A program made the translations under genes and the position numbers. This document shows, in pieces, positions 7,760 to 61,629 of a stretch of DNA of 64,000 nucleotides (within the stretch, counting starts at the first letter, position 1; each line of letters opens with the position of its first letter). This DNA comes from Candidatus Bathyarchaeota archaeon (lineage in GTDB: Archaea; Thermoproteota; Bathyarchaeia; Bathyarchaeales; Bathycorpusculaceae): assembly GCA_963806535.1 (NCBI GenBank), contig CAWDYC010000007.1:256001-320000 (forward strand), in the 5' to 3' direction. The notes under the pieces are model-generated. The model was not told the DNA's origin, did no database searches, and was given only the letters and a program-made list of their open reading frames with translations.

Positions 7760-8851
7760 GTGACATCTCTGAAAGCGGTTATCTTAGCTGGCGGCTTCGC
7801 AACAAGACTCAGGCCACTTAGTTGCGCTAGACCTAAAACGCTTTTTCCAATAGTTAACAAACCCTTGCTTGAATGGATTTTTGAAGGATTGGCTGAAAAT
7901 GGTGTTAGCGAAGCAATTTTGGCAGTAAACGCTTTAACGCAATTTCATATAAAACAGCAGAGACCGCGCAAACATGGTTTGAAAATAAGGTTTTCAATTG
8001 ATCCGCATAAAACACCACTAGGAACTGCAGGACCCGTAAAAAAAGCCGAAAAACTGATTGGCCATGATGAACCATTCATTGTTTTGAATGGCGATATTTT
8101 TGCACATTTAAGTTACAAAGAATTGGTTGACACCCATTTAAAATCTAATGCGTTGGCAACTATTGCACTCTGTAAAGTTGATGACCCATCCAGATATGGC
8201 GTGGCCGAAATGGGAAATGACAACCATATCAAGAGATTTATTGAAAAACCACACAGAGACAAAGCTCCTAGCAGCCTCATCAATGCAGGCGTTTACGTTT
8301 TAAGTCCTAAGGTCTTCGATTATGTTCCAGCTGGAAGATCAGTCTCTATGGAGCGAGAAATCTTCCCGAAACTAGCGGAGGAAGGAAAACTTTGTGGTCA
8401 CTTTGTTAATGGATTTTGGATGGATATAGGCAGACCAGAAGAGTATTTGGAAGCAAACAGAATAATTCTTGATTCCATTAGCAAAAAAACTAAACAGAAA
8501 AAAGCAAAAAACTTTGAATTAAGAAATCCTGTAGCCTTTGATAAAGGCGTTTCTATCGGTGAAAACTCACTTATTGGACCGTACGCAATTTTGGGAAAAA
8601 ATGTGATTGTCGGCAAAAATGTACGAATCAACAACTCAGTAATTTTTGCAGACGTAATAATAGGCGATTGCGCCTCAATCGATGGAGCAATAATTGGCGA
8701 AGCAGCAAAAATTGGAAAAAATGTCAAAATTTGCAATGAATGCATAATCGCCGACCATGCAAAGGTAAGAGATAATCTTGAACTCTCAGGGAAAGTATGC
8801 CCAGGTAAAGAAGTGGCTGAAAACGTTTTAAAACCCAAGGTTCATTGTTAG
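7760..8851 (+). CDS. NDP-sugar pyrophosphorylase (mannose-1-phosphate guanylyltransferase-like) with hexapeptide repeats
   Basis: AVILAGG..TRLRPL...PK, LGTAG, NGD, FIEKP, INAGVY, WMDIG.P. Confidence 0.9.
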   Translation: MTSLKAVILAGGFATRLRPLSCARPKTLFPIVNKPLLEWIFEGLAENGVSEAILAVNALTQFHIKQQRPRKHGLKIRFSIDPHKTPLGTAGPVKKAEKLIGHDEPFIVLNGDIFAHLSYKELVDTHLKSNALATIALCKVDDPSRYGVAEMGNDNHIKRFIEKPHRDKAPSSLINAGVYVLSPKVFDYVPAGRSVSMEREIFPKLAEEGKLCGHFVNGFWMDIGRPEEYLEANRIILDSISKKTKQKKAKNFELRNPVAFDKGVSIGENSLIGPYAILGKNVIVGKNVRINNSVIFADVIIGDCASIDGAIIGEAAKIGKNVKICNECIIADHAKVRDNLELSGKVCPGKEVAENVLKPKVHC

Positions 8852-55797: not shown

Positions 55798-55956
55798 TTA
55801 TATTCTTCGTCCAGAAATCAATCGCACAAGTATTATGATTATGGCTATGACAAGCAGAACCCATATTATGGTGCCAAGGTTGAATAAGACAAAGCCAAGG
55901 AGCCACAGTATGATAAGTATGGCAGCAACTACGAAAAGCACATCAAGCAATCCCAT
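55798..55956 (-). CDS. lmo0937/DUF5670-like small membrane protein (52 aa)
   Basis: Not in the ORF track. MGLLDVLFVVAAILIILWLLGFVLFNLGTIIWVLLVIAIIIILVRLISGRRI; L.ILWLLG...IHxLLV.A...L..GR family pattern. Confidence 0.8.
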   Translation of the reverse strand: MGLLDVLFVVAAILIILWLLGFVLFNLGTIIWVLLVIAIIIILVRLISGRRI

Positions 55957-56004
55957 TTTCAAAGCCTCTACTCACCCTTAACTTGAAAGCTCTTCTTTAA
56001 CATG

Positions 56005-56028
56005 TGTGACTGTGAACAAACAGCTACA
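56005..56028. promoter_or_regulatory. Palindromic operator TGT-N3-TGT-N6-ACA-N3-ACA, copy 1 (upstream of the lmo0937-like gene)
   Basis: tgtGACtgtGAACAAacaGCTaca; 4 nt from a minus-strand TTAAAG. Confidence 0.8.
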
Positions 56029-56182
56029 GCAATCAAGCAAATGGCGGTGCTGTTGGGGACAAGCCGAAGCAGAATTCGGGTTGGATATCCTGAAAAACGA
56101 TGATTCTAGATTTAATTATCTTTATATTCTTAAAATTTGTTCATATTCTAATTACCCAGTCACCAGACGAGGGGTTGTTCTC

Positions 56183-57097
56183 ATGAATCTTTCCACCCAC
56201 ATAATGTTTGGCATACTTGTTGGAGCCTTATTGTTTGGCAAACCAGAAATAGCGCTAATGGTTGGTGTGGGTGCGGCAATTAATGATCTAGACAGAGAAT
56301 ACGGCTTTTTTAGCAAGGAGTCCTTTCGACTCAGACAGATCCATCGTGCATTATTCCACAATTTCTTATTTATCGGCGTAGTGTATCTGATAAACCCGTT
56401 TTTTGGCATCGGAGCTTTTCTTCACTCATTCTTAGATTCTTTCACGACAACAAGGGACAGAGGTGTCGAATGGCTATACCCTTTTTCAAGAATTGTCACC
56501 AAAGCGGTGTATGATTCAGATGGCAAGAAATTGCCGCTTGATCCAAAACATAAGATCTATTTTCTTTCGAACGATTTTCCTGGCTTGACACGAAGAACTA
56601 CAAAAGACATCAAACCTGGAGAGATACCTGTGCCAAATAGAAGAACTTACGGCCCAGCTCTTATCAGGGAAATATCTTGACAGGTGTATCTTTTTTGGAT
56701 CCGTAGCTATTTTTCTTCTTTTGACTCTCTTTTCTGTTTCAGGCTTGCGGCAGTTCATTGATTTCAGTCTGCATAATGAAACTCTTTCTATTACAATTCC
56801 ATTGTTAATTGGCTTCAATAGGCATCTTCTTGAATTTTCTTGTGGGCGAACTTGACAGAAAGAAACTAGTTAAGACCAAGACCGATAGGCCATACAAGTT
56901 TTCATTTATCCTATCCATTGGAATAATAATCTTTGCGATAATTCTTGGTGGAATTCTTAATCCGAAAGCTGTATTCACCACGCTCAGCATGATGCCGTAC
57001 ATTGCTCCAGGTGTAGTTTTTGTTGCGTTAGGTCTATTGTTCTTTTATTCCAGGAGAATTTTCAGCAGACAGCAAAAAAGATCCACTTATTGTGTAA
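56183..57097 (+). CDS. YdjM-like membrane metal-dependent hydrolase; frameshifts
   Basis: THIMFG, GA...DLD, HR.LFHN, LHSFLD.FT, GV.WLYPF; TM-rich continuation in other frames. Confidence 0.75.
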
Positions 57098-57386
57098 TAA
57101 ATACGTATCTCCGAAGAACATTTAATGTTATGGATTGCGGAAAGCGCGAGATTAAAAAACCAAACAATAACGCACTGCGAAATTATCTTTTGCCAGGCTC
57201 TCTTGTCTGTAGGTTCACTAACAGATTAATTTGCACAATGATTTTGATCATCAGAAAGTCTCATTCACTATATCCTCTTTTAATTGGCATTCAAAGTTTC
57301 AAAAATTAGTCGAAATAGCCTAATATTAAACGTATGAAAAGAAATAACCGTGGGATTTGTTGAAAATGTTGGAAAGAAACATCCAA

Positions 57387-57677
57387 CTATGTCTTAACTG
57401 CTGGTGATAGGTACATGTGAAGCTTGTCTTTTGCAACTTTTAAGTGCAATCCATTGTCTGTCCAGACGCCAGTCCCTTTCTCTAAAGCTGAAACATTTAG
57501 CTTATTTCGCACTCCGCCTTTCTTTGCGCCAAGCACCGATTCAGCTACGTTCTTATCCAATTCGACTTCAAGATGAGTTACTTTCCATTCATCAGCATCT
57601 ACTTCTACCTCTTTGATTTTGCCGATTTTTTCATCTAACGCAAACACATCTTTATCTATAAACTCTTTACTTTTCAT
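57387..57677 (-). CDS. PRC-barrel domain protein
   Basis: KEFIDKDV......IGKIKEVEVD..EWKVTHLEV; GGAGG RBS. Confidence 0.8.
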   Translation of the reverse strand: MKSKEFIDKDVFALDEKIGKIKEVEVDADEWKVTHLEVELDKNVAESVLGAKKGGVRNKLNVSALEKGTGVWTDNGLHLKVAKDKLHMYLSPAVKT

Positions 57678-57748
57678 TCTTATCTAACCTCCCTTTACGC
57701 TCATAATTTTGTATACATTATATATGGTCATTGAGAGAGTTAAGCACA

Positions 57749-57772
57749 TGTGAATGTGAGCACACACCGACA
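57749..57772. promoter_or_regulatory. Palindromic operator, copy 2 (upstream of the PRC-barrel gene)
   Basis: tgtGAAtgtGAGCACacaCCGaca; 5 nt from a minus-strand TTAA. Confidence 0.78.
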
Positions 57773-57855
57773 AACTGGCGGTTGCGTCTGCGCTAATCGG
57801 TCATATGCCATAAGAAATTTGGAACGCGAAACCGCACAAAAAATGAATTTTGAGG

Positions 57856-58642
57856 CTATTCTTCAGCTCTTTTCCAGTCCGATTCAAAACCTGTTCTGAG
57901 TACACCAATGAGGTTGCTGTTGTTTGTCCATAAAGAAGGGCTTTCGCCTAAGCCACTTTCCTTAGAGGTGGTAATCAATGCCTCTTTGTCATCAGACATT
58001 ATAAAGTGATTCAAAGGTTCAGGATGAAACTTGACATTGAACCGAAGTGCTACCCATCAGTTTTTTCACTTTTTCTTTAAGCAAATGGTCCGGGCTTTCT
58101 CCTTCAAAAATTATTCGAATCTGAGCGCTATTCTTTATCGCCAGTTTGTATTCGTCCGAAAATTGAAATAAAACGGGCATAATCCTTCCTTTGTCCGCAA
58201 TTAATGCAACTTCTTTTTTTGAGTTACTAATTAGATCTGCAGTTTTAGCAAAAATTGATTTCTTTTCCGCTATCAGTATGTAGATGCTTTCTTCTTTGGG
58301 AAGTTGTTGCTTCCAGTCTTTAAGCGTCAGTTTTTGAACTATACCTCTCATACCCACAAGCCGCTCATCAGATTTGCCTTTTTCTTCGGCTACTAAGAGG
58401 CTTAAAGCATCCGAAATGCGAGTGGCCCTAATTTCAGTTGGTTTGCCAAGCAATCTTTCAATCAGGCCCATTTTTTCAAGTGACGGCAGAATTCTGTAGA
58501 CATCTTCTCTGCGCACTTTCGAAAAGTTCGCTACCTGTCCCACGGTAGTTTTTTCCAGTTTAAGTATTGCTAAGTAAACCTTTGCCTGGTTAAGAGTCAA
58601 ACCCAAACCAAGCAGCAATTCAGTGTTTTCATCGTTAGACAT
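57856..58642 (-). CDS. TrmB-family transcriptional regulator; frameshift near 58020-58045
   Basis: LGLT.NQAKVYLA.L.....V...SKV.REDVYR.L..LE..GL.E....P wHTH. PLD-like C-terminal part F...DDKEALI...LWTNN..L..GFE..W follows in another frame. Confidence 0.85.
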
Positions 58643-58762
58643 TGAAACCTTGAAGTATTCTTACACAATTTGTATATTTAAGATTTGATGGTCTTCTTTT
58701 GAAAATGTACGAAACTGTTTTTTGGAGTTATTTATGTTTAGGAAGTAACTTTGTTTTTGTTC

Positions 58763-59494
58763 TTAGTTCTGAAAAGTCGTCTCTAGTAATATTCTTTTCA
58801 GGATTGTGAAACCGTGACTTACTTTAAGTTTCTTTTCGCCTAACCTTGTCCTATAAGCAATTGGTACTTCCTTGATTGTGTAACCGCGCCGCTCAACCAA
58901 GTGGTTTAGCTCAACTTCGATGTCAAAGCCTTTAGATTTCACAAGCCACCCTTGCAAAATCTCAGCACGTATTGCCCGCAGCCCAGTCAACGGGTCCTGA
59001 AGCGGCACACCATTAAGCATGTTATGTACAAAAGCTAACATCTTGTTTCCAATGTGAAAAATGCTATGTAAAGCTTCCTTGTCAACTTGCCCGTTTAACC
59101 TGTTTCCACAAACCATTCCAACAAGCGGGTTTTCTTCGAGGACTTTTATCATTGCGGGGACGTATTCAGCAGGGTAAGTGTAGTCTGCATCAGTAAGAAT
59201 AATGTAATCCACATTTAGGTCGATGTGCTCAAGAGCTTTAGCTAAGGCGTCGCCCTTGCCAATGCCGTTTTGGCAAACAACTTTTGCTCCCAAGTTTTTG
59301 GCTATCTCAACTGTTCGGTCACTGCTTTTTCCGTCCACCACGAGAACCGGGATTTCACCAAGAGTGTCTTTCATCTCGGCTATTGTAAGCCCTATTCCTG
59401 GCGCTTCATTTAGTGCTGCAATTATTAGCTGCGCTGAGTAGCAGATTTCATTGTCTTGAACTAAAATAGTCAAATCCTTCATCGGTCCTTTCAT
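58763..59494 (-). CDS. Glycosyltransferase family 2 (DPM1-like)
   Basis: LNE...I, VVDG.S.D.T, GKG.A, DAD.TYP, G.R, D..TG.R, GF.IE.E, Y..R.GEKKL. Confidence 0.9.
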   Translation of the reverse strand: MKGPMKDLTILVQDNEICYSAQLIIAALNEAPGIGLTIAEMKDTLGEIPVLVVDGKSSDRTVEIAKNLGAKVVCQNGIGKGDALAKALEHIDLNVDYIILTDADYTYPAEYVPAMIKVLEENPLVGMVCGNRLNGQVDKEALHSIFHIGNKMLAFVHNMLNGVPLQDPLTGLRAIRAEILQGWLVKSKGFDIEVELNHLVERRGYTIKEVPIAYRTRLGEKKLKVSHGFTILKRILLETTFQN

Positions 59495-59688
59495 GTGATT
59501 TTCAATATATCTTAAATACCACTATACACTACATAAGGCACGTTTCCAAGAAGGAAACATGTCAAAAACCGGAGTATCCGAAGACCTAAGGGGCAACGAC
59601 AAGAGAACGCAGGAATATTCATCATTTCCATTTGATTTTCTAAGAGAAAATTATCCTTCCAAAAAACTCTAAATTGACCGGTAATAAG

Positions 59689-60114
59689 TTATTTGGGAGG
59701 GTTGGGTGTGTTGGGAGTTGTAGCGTATCCAGTTGAAAAGGGCGATTGGAATTTGCCAATATTTTCTCTGATGATGCCATAGCCTTTTTCTGCAAGGTCA
59801 TTTGGCAAGTTATCCAAATCCAATTGCTCTCCTTCTTGCTGTTTACCTTGATTTTCCTCCCCATGCCTGAGCGTGAGTTTGATAGTTGAACGGACTATTC
59901 CTTTGTCCAACTTTACGTTCGATACATCTCTGTAACTGTAATCGGTGTAATCTTTCTTTAGACCAAGCGCGTGGGGATGCCGAAAAATTATCCGTTCATT
60001 AGTTATAATTACAGATTCAATGTTAATTCGAGGATGATAGATTTTTTCCTCAATGTACAGCTCAACTTTTTCGTTTGAGCCAAGTATGTTCTTTATGTCA
60101 TCTGGAGTTGCCAT
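59689..60114 (-). CDS. Bacterial-type PH domain protein
   Basis: L..NEKV......S.IITNERII......L....TD.SY.DV.NV....G.....I.L; true start probably ATG 60114. Confidence 0.8.
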   Translation of the reverse strand: MATPDDIKNILGSNEKVELYIEEKIYHPRINIESVIITNERIIFRHPHALGLKKDYTDYSYRDVSNVKLDKGIVRSTIKLTLRHGEENQGKQQEGEQLDLDNLPNDLAEKGYGIIRENIGKFQSPFSTGYATTPNTPNPPK

Positions 60115-60164
60115 TATTATCAACCAATTATACTTAATATATCGCTTGTTTGGATAAATAGCTG

Positions 60165-60188
60165 TGTGACTGTGGAGCCACATATACA
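60165..60188. promoter_or_regulatory. Palindromic operator, copy 3 (upstream of the PH-domain gene)
   Basis: tgtGACtgtGGAGCCacaTATaca; followed on the minus strand by CAGC-TATTTAT. Confidence 0.8.
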
Positions 60189-60276
60189 AAGAGAGGTAAT
60201 TCTTGCTTTGGAGCCTACTGAGACCCCAGAAACAACCGCAAAGTCGGAAATTGTTAGATAGAGGGGATATTTAATT

Positions 60277-60603
60277 TTATGCGAATACGAAGCCGATGAT
60301 TATACCTATTATGAATCCGATGCTTAGCGGTAGTATGCCAATGATGAGTGCTCCGTATTGATACACGATTGACCCGTATTGGGTGGCGTAATTTTTCAAC
60401 GTACTAAGGCTTAAGCCGAAAAAGCCAAAGTAGGCAACGACGAAGAGTACAATTGCCGCTATGATGGCAATCTTTAGGAACATATGGACCAAATATCCTA
60501 CTATCAATCCGACTACGAACATTATTACGATCAAAACAATAGGTGGCAAACCGCCTATGCTTCCAGAAGTAATAAAATGAAATACTTGATCTATCGCTCC
60601 CAT
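60277..60603 (-). CDS. Small membrane protein (FUN14-like)
   Basis: F.VG.IVGY.V...LKI.......LF...Y.G......L...GF..G..IG pattern. Confidence 0.7.
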   Translation of the reverse strand: MGAIDQVFHFITSGSIGGLPPIVLIVIMFVVGLIVGYLVHMFLKIAIIAAIVLFVVAYFGFFGLSLSTLKNYATQYGSIVYQYGALIIGILPLSIGFIIGIIIGFVFA

Positions 60604-60654
60604 AATCTACAACTCCGCAATTAAGTAATTATTGTATTATTCCTTTTAAGCTTG

Positions 60655-60678
60655 TGTGTCAGGGAGGCTACATCAACA
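60655..60678. promoter_or_regulatory. Palindromic operator, copy 4 (one inner triplet degenerate; upstream of the FUN14-like gene)
   Basis: tgtGTCaggGAGGCTacaTCAaca; same position relative to a minus-strand CTTAAAA; flanks shared with copy 5 (TTTGTTGATGT...ACACAAG). Confidence 0.7.
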
Positions 60679-60858
60679 AATCGTCTGCTGGTATAATCAA
60701 ACACACTGTGGAAAAAACAGACCTTTGAGATTGCGAGAGAAAAATAGAATCTAAGCAACACAAATGATGCCAATAGTATAGAAATAAGATGACTCTTCTG
60801 TTTTAGCTTTCTCCGTTTGTGTGCATAGTGCTGGGTCAACCCAATGTATGATGTGATT

Positions 60859-61281
60859 TTAAATGTGGGGGAAGAATGTTCCAGGAACAACTATGCCAAA
60901 GAGGGCTCCGAATATTATGCTCACAACTACGAAGATTATCCATGCTAATATTGCTATCGCGATGGCTCCCAGCCAGCCAGTTTTGAAACTTGCTTTGTAA
61001 ACCCATATCCAAGTTATAAGCGCTAAAATTAATGCAATTATGTATGCTGTCGAGCCAATTAGCGATCCAAGTACGTAACCCACTATAATTAATGTAATGG
61101 CATAAACTATTGGACCGAACAGCGTAGCAATCATGGCTTCGCCAAACGTGGCTTTTCCGCCAGTAACTGCCTTGCCAGCCAACCACACAGGTATAGAAAC
61201 AATTATCCAAAGAATTATCAAGCCAATTATGGTTACAAGCAGACTTGCTAAAGTCATGTCTCCAAAAATAATATTGGTCAA
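60859..61281 (-). CDS. Four-TM hypothetical membrane protein
   Basis: Hydrophobic 140 aa with WLAGK.V.G..ATFGEA and YK..F.TGWL.A. Confidence 0.8.
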   Translation of the reverse strand: MTNIIFGDMTLASLLVTIIGLIILWIIVSIPVWLAGKAVTGGKATFGEAMIATLFGPIVYAITLIIVGYVLGSLIGSTAYIIALILALITWIWVYKASFKTGWLGAIAIAILAWIIFVVVSIIFGALFGIVVPGTFFPHI

Positions 61282-61330
61282 TAGTTACACCTGTTAAGTT
61301 ACTTAAGCGTGTAAATAACTATTAAACTTG

Positions 61331-61354
61331 TGTAGCTGTTGCCTCACATCAACA
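61331..61354. promoter_or_regulatory. Palindromic operator, copy 5 (upstream of the four-TM gene)
   Basis: tgtAGCtgtTGCCTCacaTCAaca; 4 nt from a minus-strand TTTAATA. Confidence 0.8.
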
Positions 61355-61422
61355 AAGCGATACTTTGTTTGTTAATTTAGTTTAAGACTTTTCTAAAGTA
61401 AAAACCTCGGGTAACCCTCAGA

Positions 61423-61446
61423 TGTTGCTGTGACTTCACAATCACG
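61423..61446. promoter_or_regulatory. Palindromic operator, copy 6 (1 mismatch; upstream of the plus-strand LEA-like ORF)
   Basis: tgtTGCtgtGACTTCacaATCacg followed by CACA-CTTAAT. Confidence 0.75.
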
Positions 61447-61491
61447 CACACTTAATTTTGCCATAAACAACTTTTAGATAGGGGTGATAGA

Positions 61492-61629
61492 ATGTCTAAG
61501 ACGAAGAAAAAAGTTAAGAATGCTGCCGAAGAAACGGGAGAAGCAGTCGGCAAAGGTATTAAGAGAGGAGCTAAAGCCGTGGATGACTTTGGAAAGGGAA
61601 TAAAGAAAGAACTCAAGAAAAAAGAATAA
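61492..61629 (+). CDS. Small Lys/Gly/Ala/Glu-rich hydrophilin (LEA/CsbD-like), 45 aa
   Basis: Not in the ORF track. GGGGTGA RBS; MSKTKKKVKNAAEETGEAVGKGIKRGAKAVDDFGKGIKKELKKKE with repeated GKGIK. Confidence 0.7.
   Translation: MSKTKKKVKNAAEETGEAVGKGIKRGAKAVDDFGKGIKKELKKKE

Follow-up and report, generated by a model that had tools for sequence, protein, structure and literature searches.

A Predicted Stress-Type Regulon of Bathyarchaeia Marked by a 24-bp Dyad in Fixed Phase with the Core Promoter, and a Tentative Sso10a-Family Candidate for Its Regulator

Introduction

Bathyarchaeia occur in abundance but essentially without cultured members, and in the literature searched we found nothing on the regulation of their genes. 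Here we consider a stretch of 64,000 nucleotides (nt) from the genome of a Candidatus Bathyarchaeota archaeon; the whole stretch, G000:C7:256001-320000, is referred to as the window, and its genome, G000, comprises 2.95 Mb in 12 contigs at ~41% G+C. A preliminary description of this DNA had pointed to a palindrome, TGT-N3-TGT-N6-ACA-N3-ACA, next to the promoters of six small genes, and had proposed a stress-type regulon under an activator. Is this 24-bp dyad, with its 12 fixed bases, a shared control element, how widely is it distributed, and which protein might read it, and to what effect?

Results

A scan of the window with TGTNNNTGTNNNNNNACANNNACA confirmed the six copies of the preliminary description. 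Four are perfect and lie on the minus strand at 56005..56028, 57749..57772, 60165..60188 and 61331..61354 (sites 1, 2, 3 and 5). The two variants are site 4, at 60655..60678 on the minus strand, with two mismatches, both in the promoter-proximal half, and site 6, at 61423..61446 on the plus strand, with one mismatch. By arithmetic on the measured composition, ~0.007 perfect copies would be expected per 64 kb and ~0.3 per genome; an earlier estimate of ~0.01 per 64 kb was thus of the right order. There were no perfect matches in 100 dinucleotide-preserving shuffles of the window. Two further matches with two mismatches, at 8602 and 63078, are without promoter architecture and fall within a chance expectation of 3.4.

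All six copies lie between open reading frames (ORFs), and on the gene side of each a spacer of 4-5 nt leads to a T/A-rich, TATA-like box on the same strand, as had been claimed. The box is TTAAAGAA at 55993..56000 for site 1 (4 nt), TTAACTCT at 57736..57743 for site 2 (5 nt), TATTTATC at 60153..60160 for site 3 (4 nt), TTAAAAGG at 60642..60649 for site 4 (5 nt), TTTAATAG at 61319..61326 for site 5 (4 nt) and TTAATTTT at 61452..61459 for site 6 (5 nt). From motif end to start codon we measured 48, 71, 50, 51, 49 and 45 nt for sites 1 to 6, that is, 45-51 nt at five sites and 71 nt at a PRC-barrel gene, in line with the 46-52 nt and the single ~72 nt reported before. Against the position weight matrix (PWM) described next, the six sites score 33.1, 27.5, 33.0, 25.1, 28.1 and 27.5 bits, respectively.

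Genome-wide, 16 perfect dyads are present in G000 against the ~0.3 expected from composition. The PWM was built from 17 sites oriented by their gene side, all of which are among the 49 sites that it returned at ≥16 bits. At ≥12, ≥16 and ≥20 bits there were 81, 49 and 36 unique sites, compared with 14-24, 1-7 and 0-4 in five first-order Markov shuffles. Only 3 of the 49 fall inside ATG-initiated ORFs of ≥150 amino acids, which occupy 61% of the genome, and nowhere are the sites packed more densely than in the window, where 6 of the 49 lie within 5.4 kb. At 23 of the 36 sites of ≥20 bits (better-scoring strand), T(T)TAA follows the motif after 4-5 nt, compared with a background of 1.6%. Among 42 curated targets, 34 have an ORF start 35-80 nt after the motif.

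A core-promoter model was learned by expectation maximization on 1627 upstream regions of G000. It is a typical archaeal promoter, with an A-rich transcription factor B recognition element (BRE) containing two strongly conserved A's, followed by three bases and TTAA(A/T). The dyad ends 4 nt before position 0 of this model in 32 of the 49 sites and 3 nt before it in 7, so that its last A falls on the first BRE position; its last three bases (ACA) occupy model positions -7 to -5. Assuming the usual archaeal distance from TATA box to start site, the dyad would span roughly -35 to -58 from the predicted start of transcription. Conservation is asymmetric: positions 19-21, in the promoter-proximal half, which reads ACAGTCACA on the gene strand (as at site 1), carry 0.75, 0.78 and 1.35 bits, whereas the mirror positions 4-6 of the distal half carry 0.11, 0.83 and 0.07 bits. 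The sites are neither randomly placed nor mostly intragenic, with 39 of 49 at an offset of 3-4 nt, and the proposal of a promoter-tied, regulon-type cis element is borne out by the genome-wide enrichment, the near-total exclusion from ORFs and the fixed distance to the TATA box. The dyad is confirmed as a promoter-linked shared element in a fixed position directly upstream of the BRE and of the TATA box.

Relatives of G000 were searched with fixed patterns, the PWM scan covering G000, and the counts that follow are descriptive, as related genomes are not independent and non-detection in a metagenome-assembled genome (MAG) is not the same as absence. Of 24 other genomes sampled from the genus, 21 have a perfect dyad, in up to 18 copies, compared with 0-1 for a reversed-pattern control. 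In an evenly drawn sample of 201 genomes of the class, each of ≥80% completeness, 27 contain at least one copy, with real enrichment limited to a few lineages: the window's genus (9 of 12 genomes), G113 from another genus of the same family, with 6 copies, G219 and G216 from a second family, with 7 and 2 copies, and G102 from a third, with 55. The same genomes as with the dyad are flagged by an independent proxy, ACAGTCACA-N4-5-TTAA, which gave no match in the dyad-less genus members G006, G118 and G148 (96-97% complete).

The 55 perfect dyads of G102 are dispersed and all different in sequence. Of the first 20 sites, 16 have a TATA-model score of ≥3 at an offset of 3-5 nt (background, 11-17%), and an offset of 4 nt is the commonest (13 of 20); a strict T(T)TAA expression, which underestimates boxes relative to the TATA-model score, recognizes 7 of the 20. 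This phasing indicates that a promoter architecture, and not merely the triplet words, is common to both families. G102 has the largest version of the regulon that we saw, together with 34 matches to the winged-helix family HTH_45 against 5-7 in the dyad-less genus members.

A composite-pattern scan of one genome per prokaryote species returned at least 119 stretches; among the matches listed, 72 of 80 were from records titled Bathyarchaeota or Bathyarchaeia, which agrees with the class assumed in the preliminary description. The few others were hits at chance level, short contigs binned with bacteria and two Asgard MAGs. In the two Asgard MAGs (L020 and L039), near-identical sites place dyad, spacer and TTAA 54 nt upstream of a gene for an 81-residue winged-helix-like protein. 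These sites may be explained by chance combined with relatedness, or may represent a related operator beyond Bathyarchaeia.

Conservation upstream of orthologs, the loss of which in relatives the preliminary description had named as a refutation, holds within the genus and in other lineages of Bathyarchaeia but fails in one more distant relative: G040, from another family, has a syntenic island of PRC, DUF5670 and bacterial PH-domain (bPH) genes without the dyad, and the dyad is thus lineage restricted rather than class-wide. The G040 island (L212, G040:C1:369300-375000) contains PRC, DUF5670, radical SAM, bPH and divergent HTH_45 genes. Upstream of the TATA box, its PRC and bPH promoters share a different element, ~45 nt long and containing two short palindromes, which was seen at these promoters only at the stringency tested. 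At this stringency we rejected its palindrome AAGACANTGTCTT as a regulon motif, as it has one copy in G040, one in G213 and none in G216, G175 and G000. A dyad-rich island is also present in G219 (L208, G219:C5:22000-31500), with six strong dyads (22.7-31.4 bits) in 8 kb. The predicted targets there are a ferritin/rubrerythrin-like gene, a superoxide dismutase gene, an ORF of ~61 residues, a GYD-type gene and a gene for a secreted protein; genes for a class-II-type photolyase and a TrmB-MEDS protein lie among the sites.

The predicted regulon of G000 comprises about 50 promoters, mostly of small stress-type genes. Gene calls are the ORF heuristics of this analysis, and families were assigned with Pfam and NCBIfam profiles. 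Beyond the window, the targets include two KGG-repeat proteins, MsrA (PMSR), an alcohol dehydrogenase, a weak MazG-like match, a thermosome-type (Cpn60) fragment of 149 residues, two small proteins of the GYD/AsnC type, a DUF5518 membrane protein, a DUF6855 protein, a YdjM paralog, a receiver-domain protein, a flavodoxin-like protein fused to DUF5752 and a 77-residue HTH_45 winged-helix protein. In other MAGs, the first ORF after the motif belongs recurrently to the same families: a 92-residue protein (12 members), DUF5670 (10), a 45-residue peptide (9), a transmembrane peptide of 43 residues (8), HTH_45 (5), PRC (4) and a 108-residue membrane protein (4). A cluster of 11 fasciclin and flavodoxin proteins was discarded as a linkage artifact, the flavodoxin-DUF5752 and fasciclin proteins having no similarity to each other. 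Single Pfam-confirmed cases in other MAGs are an Fe/Mn superoxide dismutase, an AhpC/TSA peroxiredoxin, Hsp20, a ferritin-like protein and DUF1508.

The suggestion that these are general-stress genes is consistent with the profiles, which are of a general or oxidative-stress kind (lmo0937, PRC, bPH, KGG, PMSR, the Cpn60 fragment, flavodoxin-like, superoxide dismutase, AhpC/TSA, HSP20, ferritin and DUF1508), and a "general stress" label appears reasonable by gene content. In bacteria, KGG proteins (GsiB/YciG), lmo0937, DUF1508/YegP, Dps-type ferritins, superoxide dismutase and MsrA are placed under sigma-B or sigma-S. The overlap with these bacterial gene sets is striking.

The highest-scoring site of G000 (33.4 bits) precedes a gene for a fasciclin domain with two C2H2 zinc fingers (G000:C3:45306-46019), a cytoplasmic-looking protein of an architecture unusual for archaea. 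Between the site and this gene there is a remnant of ~19 codons resembling the C terminus of DUF5670. As a regulator this protein had some appeal, since two fingers per monomer could suit the four triplets, but it was rejected: its homolog in G207 has the fasciclin part only, and none was found in three genomes of the genus. We treat it as a target.

One target family is itself a potential DNA-binding regulator. The HTH_45 gene of G000 lies outside the window (G000:C5:46271-46507), with a paralog at C4:517776-517991. A search of the class sample with the G000 protein returned homologs in exactly the nine dyad-bearing genomes of the genus and in G113, and none in the three dyad-less genomes of the genus. 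A dyad, or a recognizable remnant of one, is directly upstream of the HTH_45 gene at 13 of 13 loci examined, with a 4-nt spacer and TTTAAG or TTTATG; these loci sample 10 genomes of the genus, G000 contributing two paralogs, as well as G113 and a single paralog of G102. The motif reaches ≥12 bits at 11 of the 13, and the two others score 8.0 and -1.2 bits; on reading, proximal half, spacer and TATA box are retained in both. The 12 loci of the window's family form one clade (support, 99/93) in a tree built from 48 HTH_45 sequences. The G000 copy matches PF14947 (HTH_45) at 43.5 bits (cutoff, 25.5) and its G189 ortholog at 70.3 bits; for the Sso10a family profile NF053610 (cutoff, 60 bits) the scores are 46.6 and 73.3 bits, respectively. 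The nearest solved structure is that of Sso10a, 1R7J.

Within the window, the genes beside the sites are as follows. Site 1 precedes a gene on the minus strand (55798..55956) for a 52-residue membrane peptide of the lmo0937 family/DUF5670 (PF18919, 31.4 bits with a cutoff of 23.5; NF033488, 38.8 bits with a cutoff of 30). The target of site 2 is a 96-residue PRC-barrel protein (PF05239; 57387..57677, minus strand), a paralog of which, at G000:C5:46803-47093, is also preceded by a dyad, and that of site 3 is a 141-residue bPH protein (59689..60114, minus strand; bPH_3, 41.3 bits). Downstream of the bPH gene, and possibly cotranscribed with it, is a gene for a family 2 glycosyltransferase (PF00535; 58763..59494, minus strand); a homolog in another MAG (L051) has a dyad 134 nt upstream. 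Site 4 is followed by a gene for a 108-residue membrane protein (60277..60603, minus strand), homologs of which stand downstream of the motif at three other MAG loci. It had been likened to FUN14, but we found no Pfam family at an E value of ≤0.01, a weak holin match only at ≤5 and no NCBIfam match. Site 5 serves a 140-residue multipass membrane protein (60859..61281, minus strand), read from a TTG 49 nt after the site, with the first ATG at 73 nt, and site 6 a lysine-rich peptide of 45 residues (61492..61629, plus strand), with homologs downstream of the motif at eight other MAG loci. Of the six names given in the preliminary description, the lmo0937/DUF5670, PRC-barrel and bPH assignments were upheld, whereas the FUN14-like, four-transmembrane and LEA/CsbD-like proteins have no Pfam or NCBIfam match.

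A TrmB-family helix-turn-helix gene (PF01978; 57856..58642, minus strand) lies within the island. It is divided by a frameshift near 58020-58040 into ORFs of 207 and 52 residues, the larger at 58019-58642. An intact ortholog of 261 residues in G113 matches both pieces in two frames (tblastn; 82% and 77% identity), and the split represents either a pseudogene or an assembly error. No dyad is present upstream of this gene. A YdjM-family membrane-protein gene (56183-57100, plus strand) adjoins site 1; ~130 nt past it is a further open frame of similarly hydrophobic character, so that this gene, too, may be split. Elsewhere, at G000:C6:116833-117513, a YdjM paralog has a 22.6-bit site upstream.

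Discussion

The arrangement of four triplets over 24 bp implies an oligomeric DNA-binding protein, and we consider it probable that the dyad is the operator of such a sequence-specific transcription factor at the roughly 50 predicted promoters of G000. A dimer or a dimer of dimers would bind the dyad abutting the BRE and would recruit or stabilize transcription factor B (TFB) and the TATA-binding protein (TBP), leading to activation. The site directly upstream of the BRE, the near-invariant phasing to the TATA box in two families and the better conservation of the proximal half point to a factor that touches the pre-initiation complex, which would make it an activator. Going by position and fixed phasing, we think it likely that the factor activates rather than represses. 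With small membrane and soluble proteins and protective enzymes as targets, the circuit would be akin to a general stress response running on an archaeal promoter.

A serious, though less probable, rival is that the factor is a repressor, which would sit at the edge of the BRE, block TFB and hold competent promoters off until a stress signal arrives. Several archaeal stress regulators are repressors, and some of our observations count against activation. The final ACA of the dyad lies on BRE-model positions, so that steric exclusion of TFB is conceivable. The motif promoters have near-ordinary TATA boxes (median score, 3.9 versus 4.5 bits) and a BRE that is not measurably weaker: a BRE of >2 bits was found in 16% of motif promoters versus 24% of others, the control here ("best TATA" hits) being noisy. 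In G219 and G216, the dyad is 22-24 nt before the start of the TrmB-MEDS gene, over the core promoter of that gene, which is a repressing position. These points have to be set against the near-invariant placement (39 of 49 sites at an offset of 3-4 nt, and 13 of 20 at an offset of 4 nt in another family), the near-absence of dyads over the TATA box or start region of a target and the asymmetric conservation of the proximal half, which fits a stereospecific contact. Comparison with TrmBL1 of Thermococcales also favors activation, as in that chromatin immunoprecipitation sequencing study sites upstream of the BRE and of the TATA box activate and sites downstream of the promoter elements repress (PMC4706686). 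Similarly, CopR of Pyrococcus furiosus is described as an octamer of the Lrp type with a TRASH domain, whose motif stands immediately upstream of the BRE at 8 of the 9 promoters that it regulates and which activates in vitro and also represses its own promoter (PMC7830388).

Which protein would occupy the dyad is less clear. In the window's lineage the best candidate is the small Sso10a/HTH_45 winged-helix protein, to which we give a chance somewhat short of even. Such a protein would control its own promoter through a dyad in the same position as at its targets, a form of autoregulation. Several observations weigh against this assignment. The dyad-less genomes of the genus are also without the PRC, DUF5670 and fasciclin-zinc-finger genes; the targets thus covary with HTH_45, and co-occurrence cannot distinguish a regulator from its targets. 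The motif was upstream of none of six HTH_45 paralogs tested in G219 and none of four in G216. In G102, two paralogs are preceded by the motif, but neither is an ortholog of the family clade, and with 34 paralogs and 55 sites in that genome one adjacency is near chance. Moreover, the G000 copies are only 29-37% identical to the other orthologs of the genus, yet the motif is unchanged. The TrmB-MEDS genes of G219 and G216 add to these doubts, as a dyad 22-24 nt before a regulator gene has the classic layout of a factor acting on its own operator, and the same dyad faces a divergent target. A regulator that is neither an HTH_45 nor a TrmB candidate is a substantial prospect, and to this we likewise assign a chance a little below even. 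A broader scheme, in which an Sso10a/HTH_45 protein would be a master activator of ~50, and in some genomes up to >100, promoters for stress peptides of bacterial type and for antioxidant enzymes, would activate its own gene and would belong to a module that is gained and lost as a whole and possibly exchanged as islands, is speculative and in our estimation on the doubtful side.

The chief rival candidate, though an unlikely one, is a TrmB-family protein, either the short form of the island or the long TrmB-MEDS form; HTH_45 would then be just a member of the regulon. In addition to the layout in G219 and G216, such a gene lies within the dyad-rich island of the window, its orthologs adjoin dyad sites in G013, G113 and G213, and the family is expanded in dyad-bearing genomes (11-14 matches versus 0-1). 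Factors of this family bind palindromes and activate from upstream sites (PMC4706686). However, the copy in the window is frameshifted, and a search of 200 other genomes of the class found island orthologs of ≥68% identity in just 4, and in none of seven dyad-bearing genomes of the genus. G102, with its 55 dyads and 89% completeness, has no match to the island TrmB at 1e-8. None of the 18 TrmB-family genes of G000 above the Pfam cutoff has a strong upstream site (best, 13.3 bits), and the dyad differs from the quoted consensus of the TrmBL1 motif, TGM, in half-site orientation and spacing.

Orthologs of the island TrmB-like gene at G113:C54, G213:C1:161834-162442 and G098:C114:1803-2411 share 68-83% identity across three families, and the universal TFB is ~77% identical between two of these three. 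The sequences hint that the island, or parts of it, may move between lineages.

Two further explanations do without a dedicated factor of this kind. Under the first, dyad, BRE and TATA box together would make up a composite promoter, for which an alternative TFB or TBP paralog would be the dedicated reader. TFB genes do number 3-4 in G000, G013, G207 and G102 versus ~2 in the dyad-less G006 and G148, but the extra TFB of G000 is a recent duplicate, 83% identical to the universal TFB, and there are two TFB matches each in the dyad-bearing G017, G143 and G113 and in the dyad-less G118 and G148. Moreover, the TFB helix-turn-helix would not reach across a 24-bp dyad that extends to 29 nt upstream of the TATA box, and we regard this explanation as very improbable. 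A fourth TFB-like locus in G000 (G000:C8:40194-41131) consists of pieces with internal stops, 87% and 79% identical to the C11 copy, and looks like a decayed recent duplicate. Least credible of all is a dispersed repeat or copied promoter cassette, to which the identical sequence of three of the seven G219 copies and the near-identity of the G000 promoters C3:46151 and C10:31385 through the TATA box might point, but almost all copies vary at the twelve N positions while the dyad bases and spacing are kept, the flanks are unrelated, and the motif is retained at orthologous genes across species despite diverged surroundings.

The reading of the dyad as a transcription-factor operator at a phased position can be compared with known systems. 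The TGM of TrmBL1, with the quoted consensus TATCAC-N5-GTGATA, is likewise a palindrome common to tens of promoters, with an effect set by its position relative to the BRE and TATA box; as reported, its positions vary, its targets are in sugar metabolism and its hosts are of another class, whereas the dyad is made of four TGT/ACA triplets over 24 bp with opposite half-site orientation, is phase locked to the TATA box and has stress-type targets (PMC4706686). The cop-motif of CopR, quoted as TTNNCAWWWTGNNAA, is semipalindromic and also stands immediately upstream of the BRE in nearly every promoter of its regulon, which comprises ~10 copper-response genes versus ~50 promoters for the dyad (PMC7830388). 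When set against these quoted consensus sequences, the dyad PWM matched neither TGM nor the cop-motif; by sequence the dyad differs clearly from both and lies outside both sets. Nor did we find any description of the motif, or of any Bathyarchaeia regulon, in the literature searched, in agreement with the earlier statement that the motif was not recognized.

Other comparisons concern mechanism and content. Ptr2, TFB-RF1 and EarA bind just upstream of the BRE and of the TATA box and aid the recruitment of TFB and TBP at one or a few promoters. We know of no regulon-wide, fixed-phase dyad of this sequence for activators of this type. The sigma-B regulon of Bacillus and Listeria and the sigma-S regulon of Escherichia coli include the same kinds of small proteins, but they depend on a sigma factor, whereas here a transcription-factor dyad is joined to an archaeal TATA box. 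The dyad promoters are archaeal BRE/TATA promoters and not of the sigma type, and the likeness is one of protein families only. The HTH_45 candidate shares with Sso10a its small size, a winged helix and a C-terminal helix. Sso10a proteins of Sulfolobus are described as architectural DNA binders, with no defined operator or regulon found described in the part of the source available, whereas the candidate here would be tied, by inference, to a defined dyad (PMC4941522). What appears to be new is a large, lineage-restricted, phase-locked regulon, predicted in an uncultured archaeal class, and possibly a first regulatory role for the Sso10a family.

In summary, the dyad provides a testable regulon for Bathyarchaeia, with a 24-bp probe, ~50 promoters within a single genome and two candidate regulators, both open to synthesis from MAG sequence. 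It groups unnamed small proteins, by a single control signal, with superoxide dismutase, MsrA, peroxiredoxin, ferritin and Hsp20, and could serve as a marker for stress states in metatranscriptomes. Its fixed phasing to the BRE would offer a clean model for the contact of an activator with TFB and TBP in archaea. If the Sso10a-family candidate is correct, that family would have a sequence-specific regulatory role, and if the broader scheme of a master activator were also to hold, Sso10a/HTH_45 proteins, which have so far been treated as chromatin proteins, would run a general stress response.

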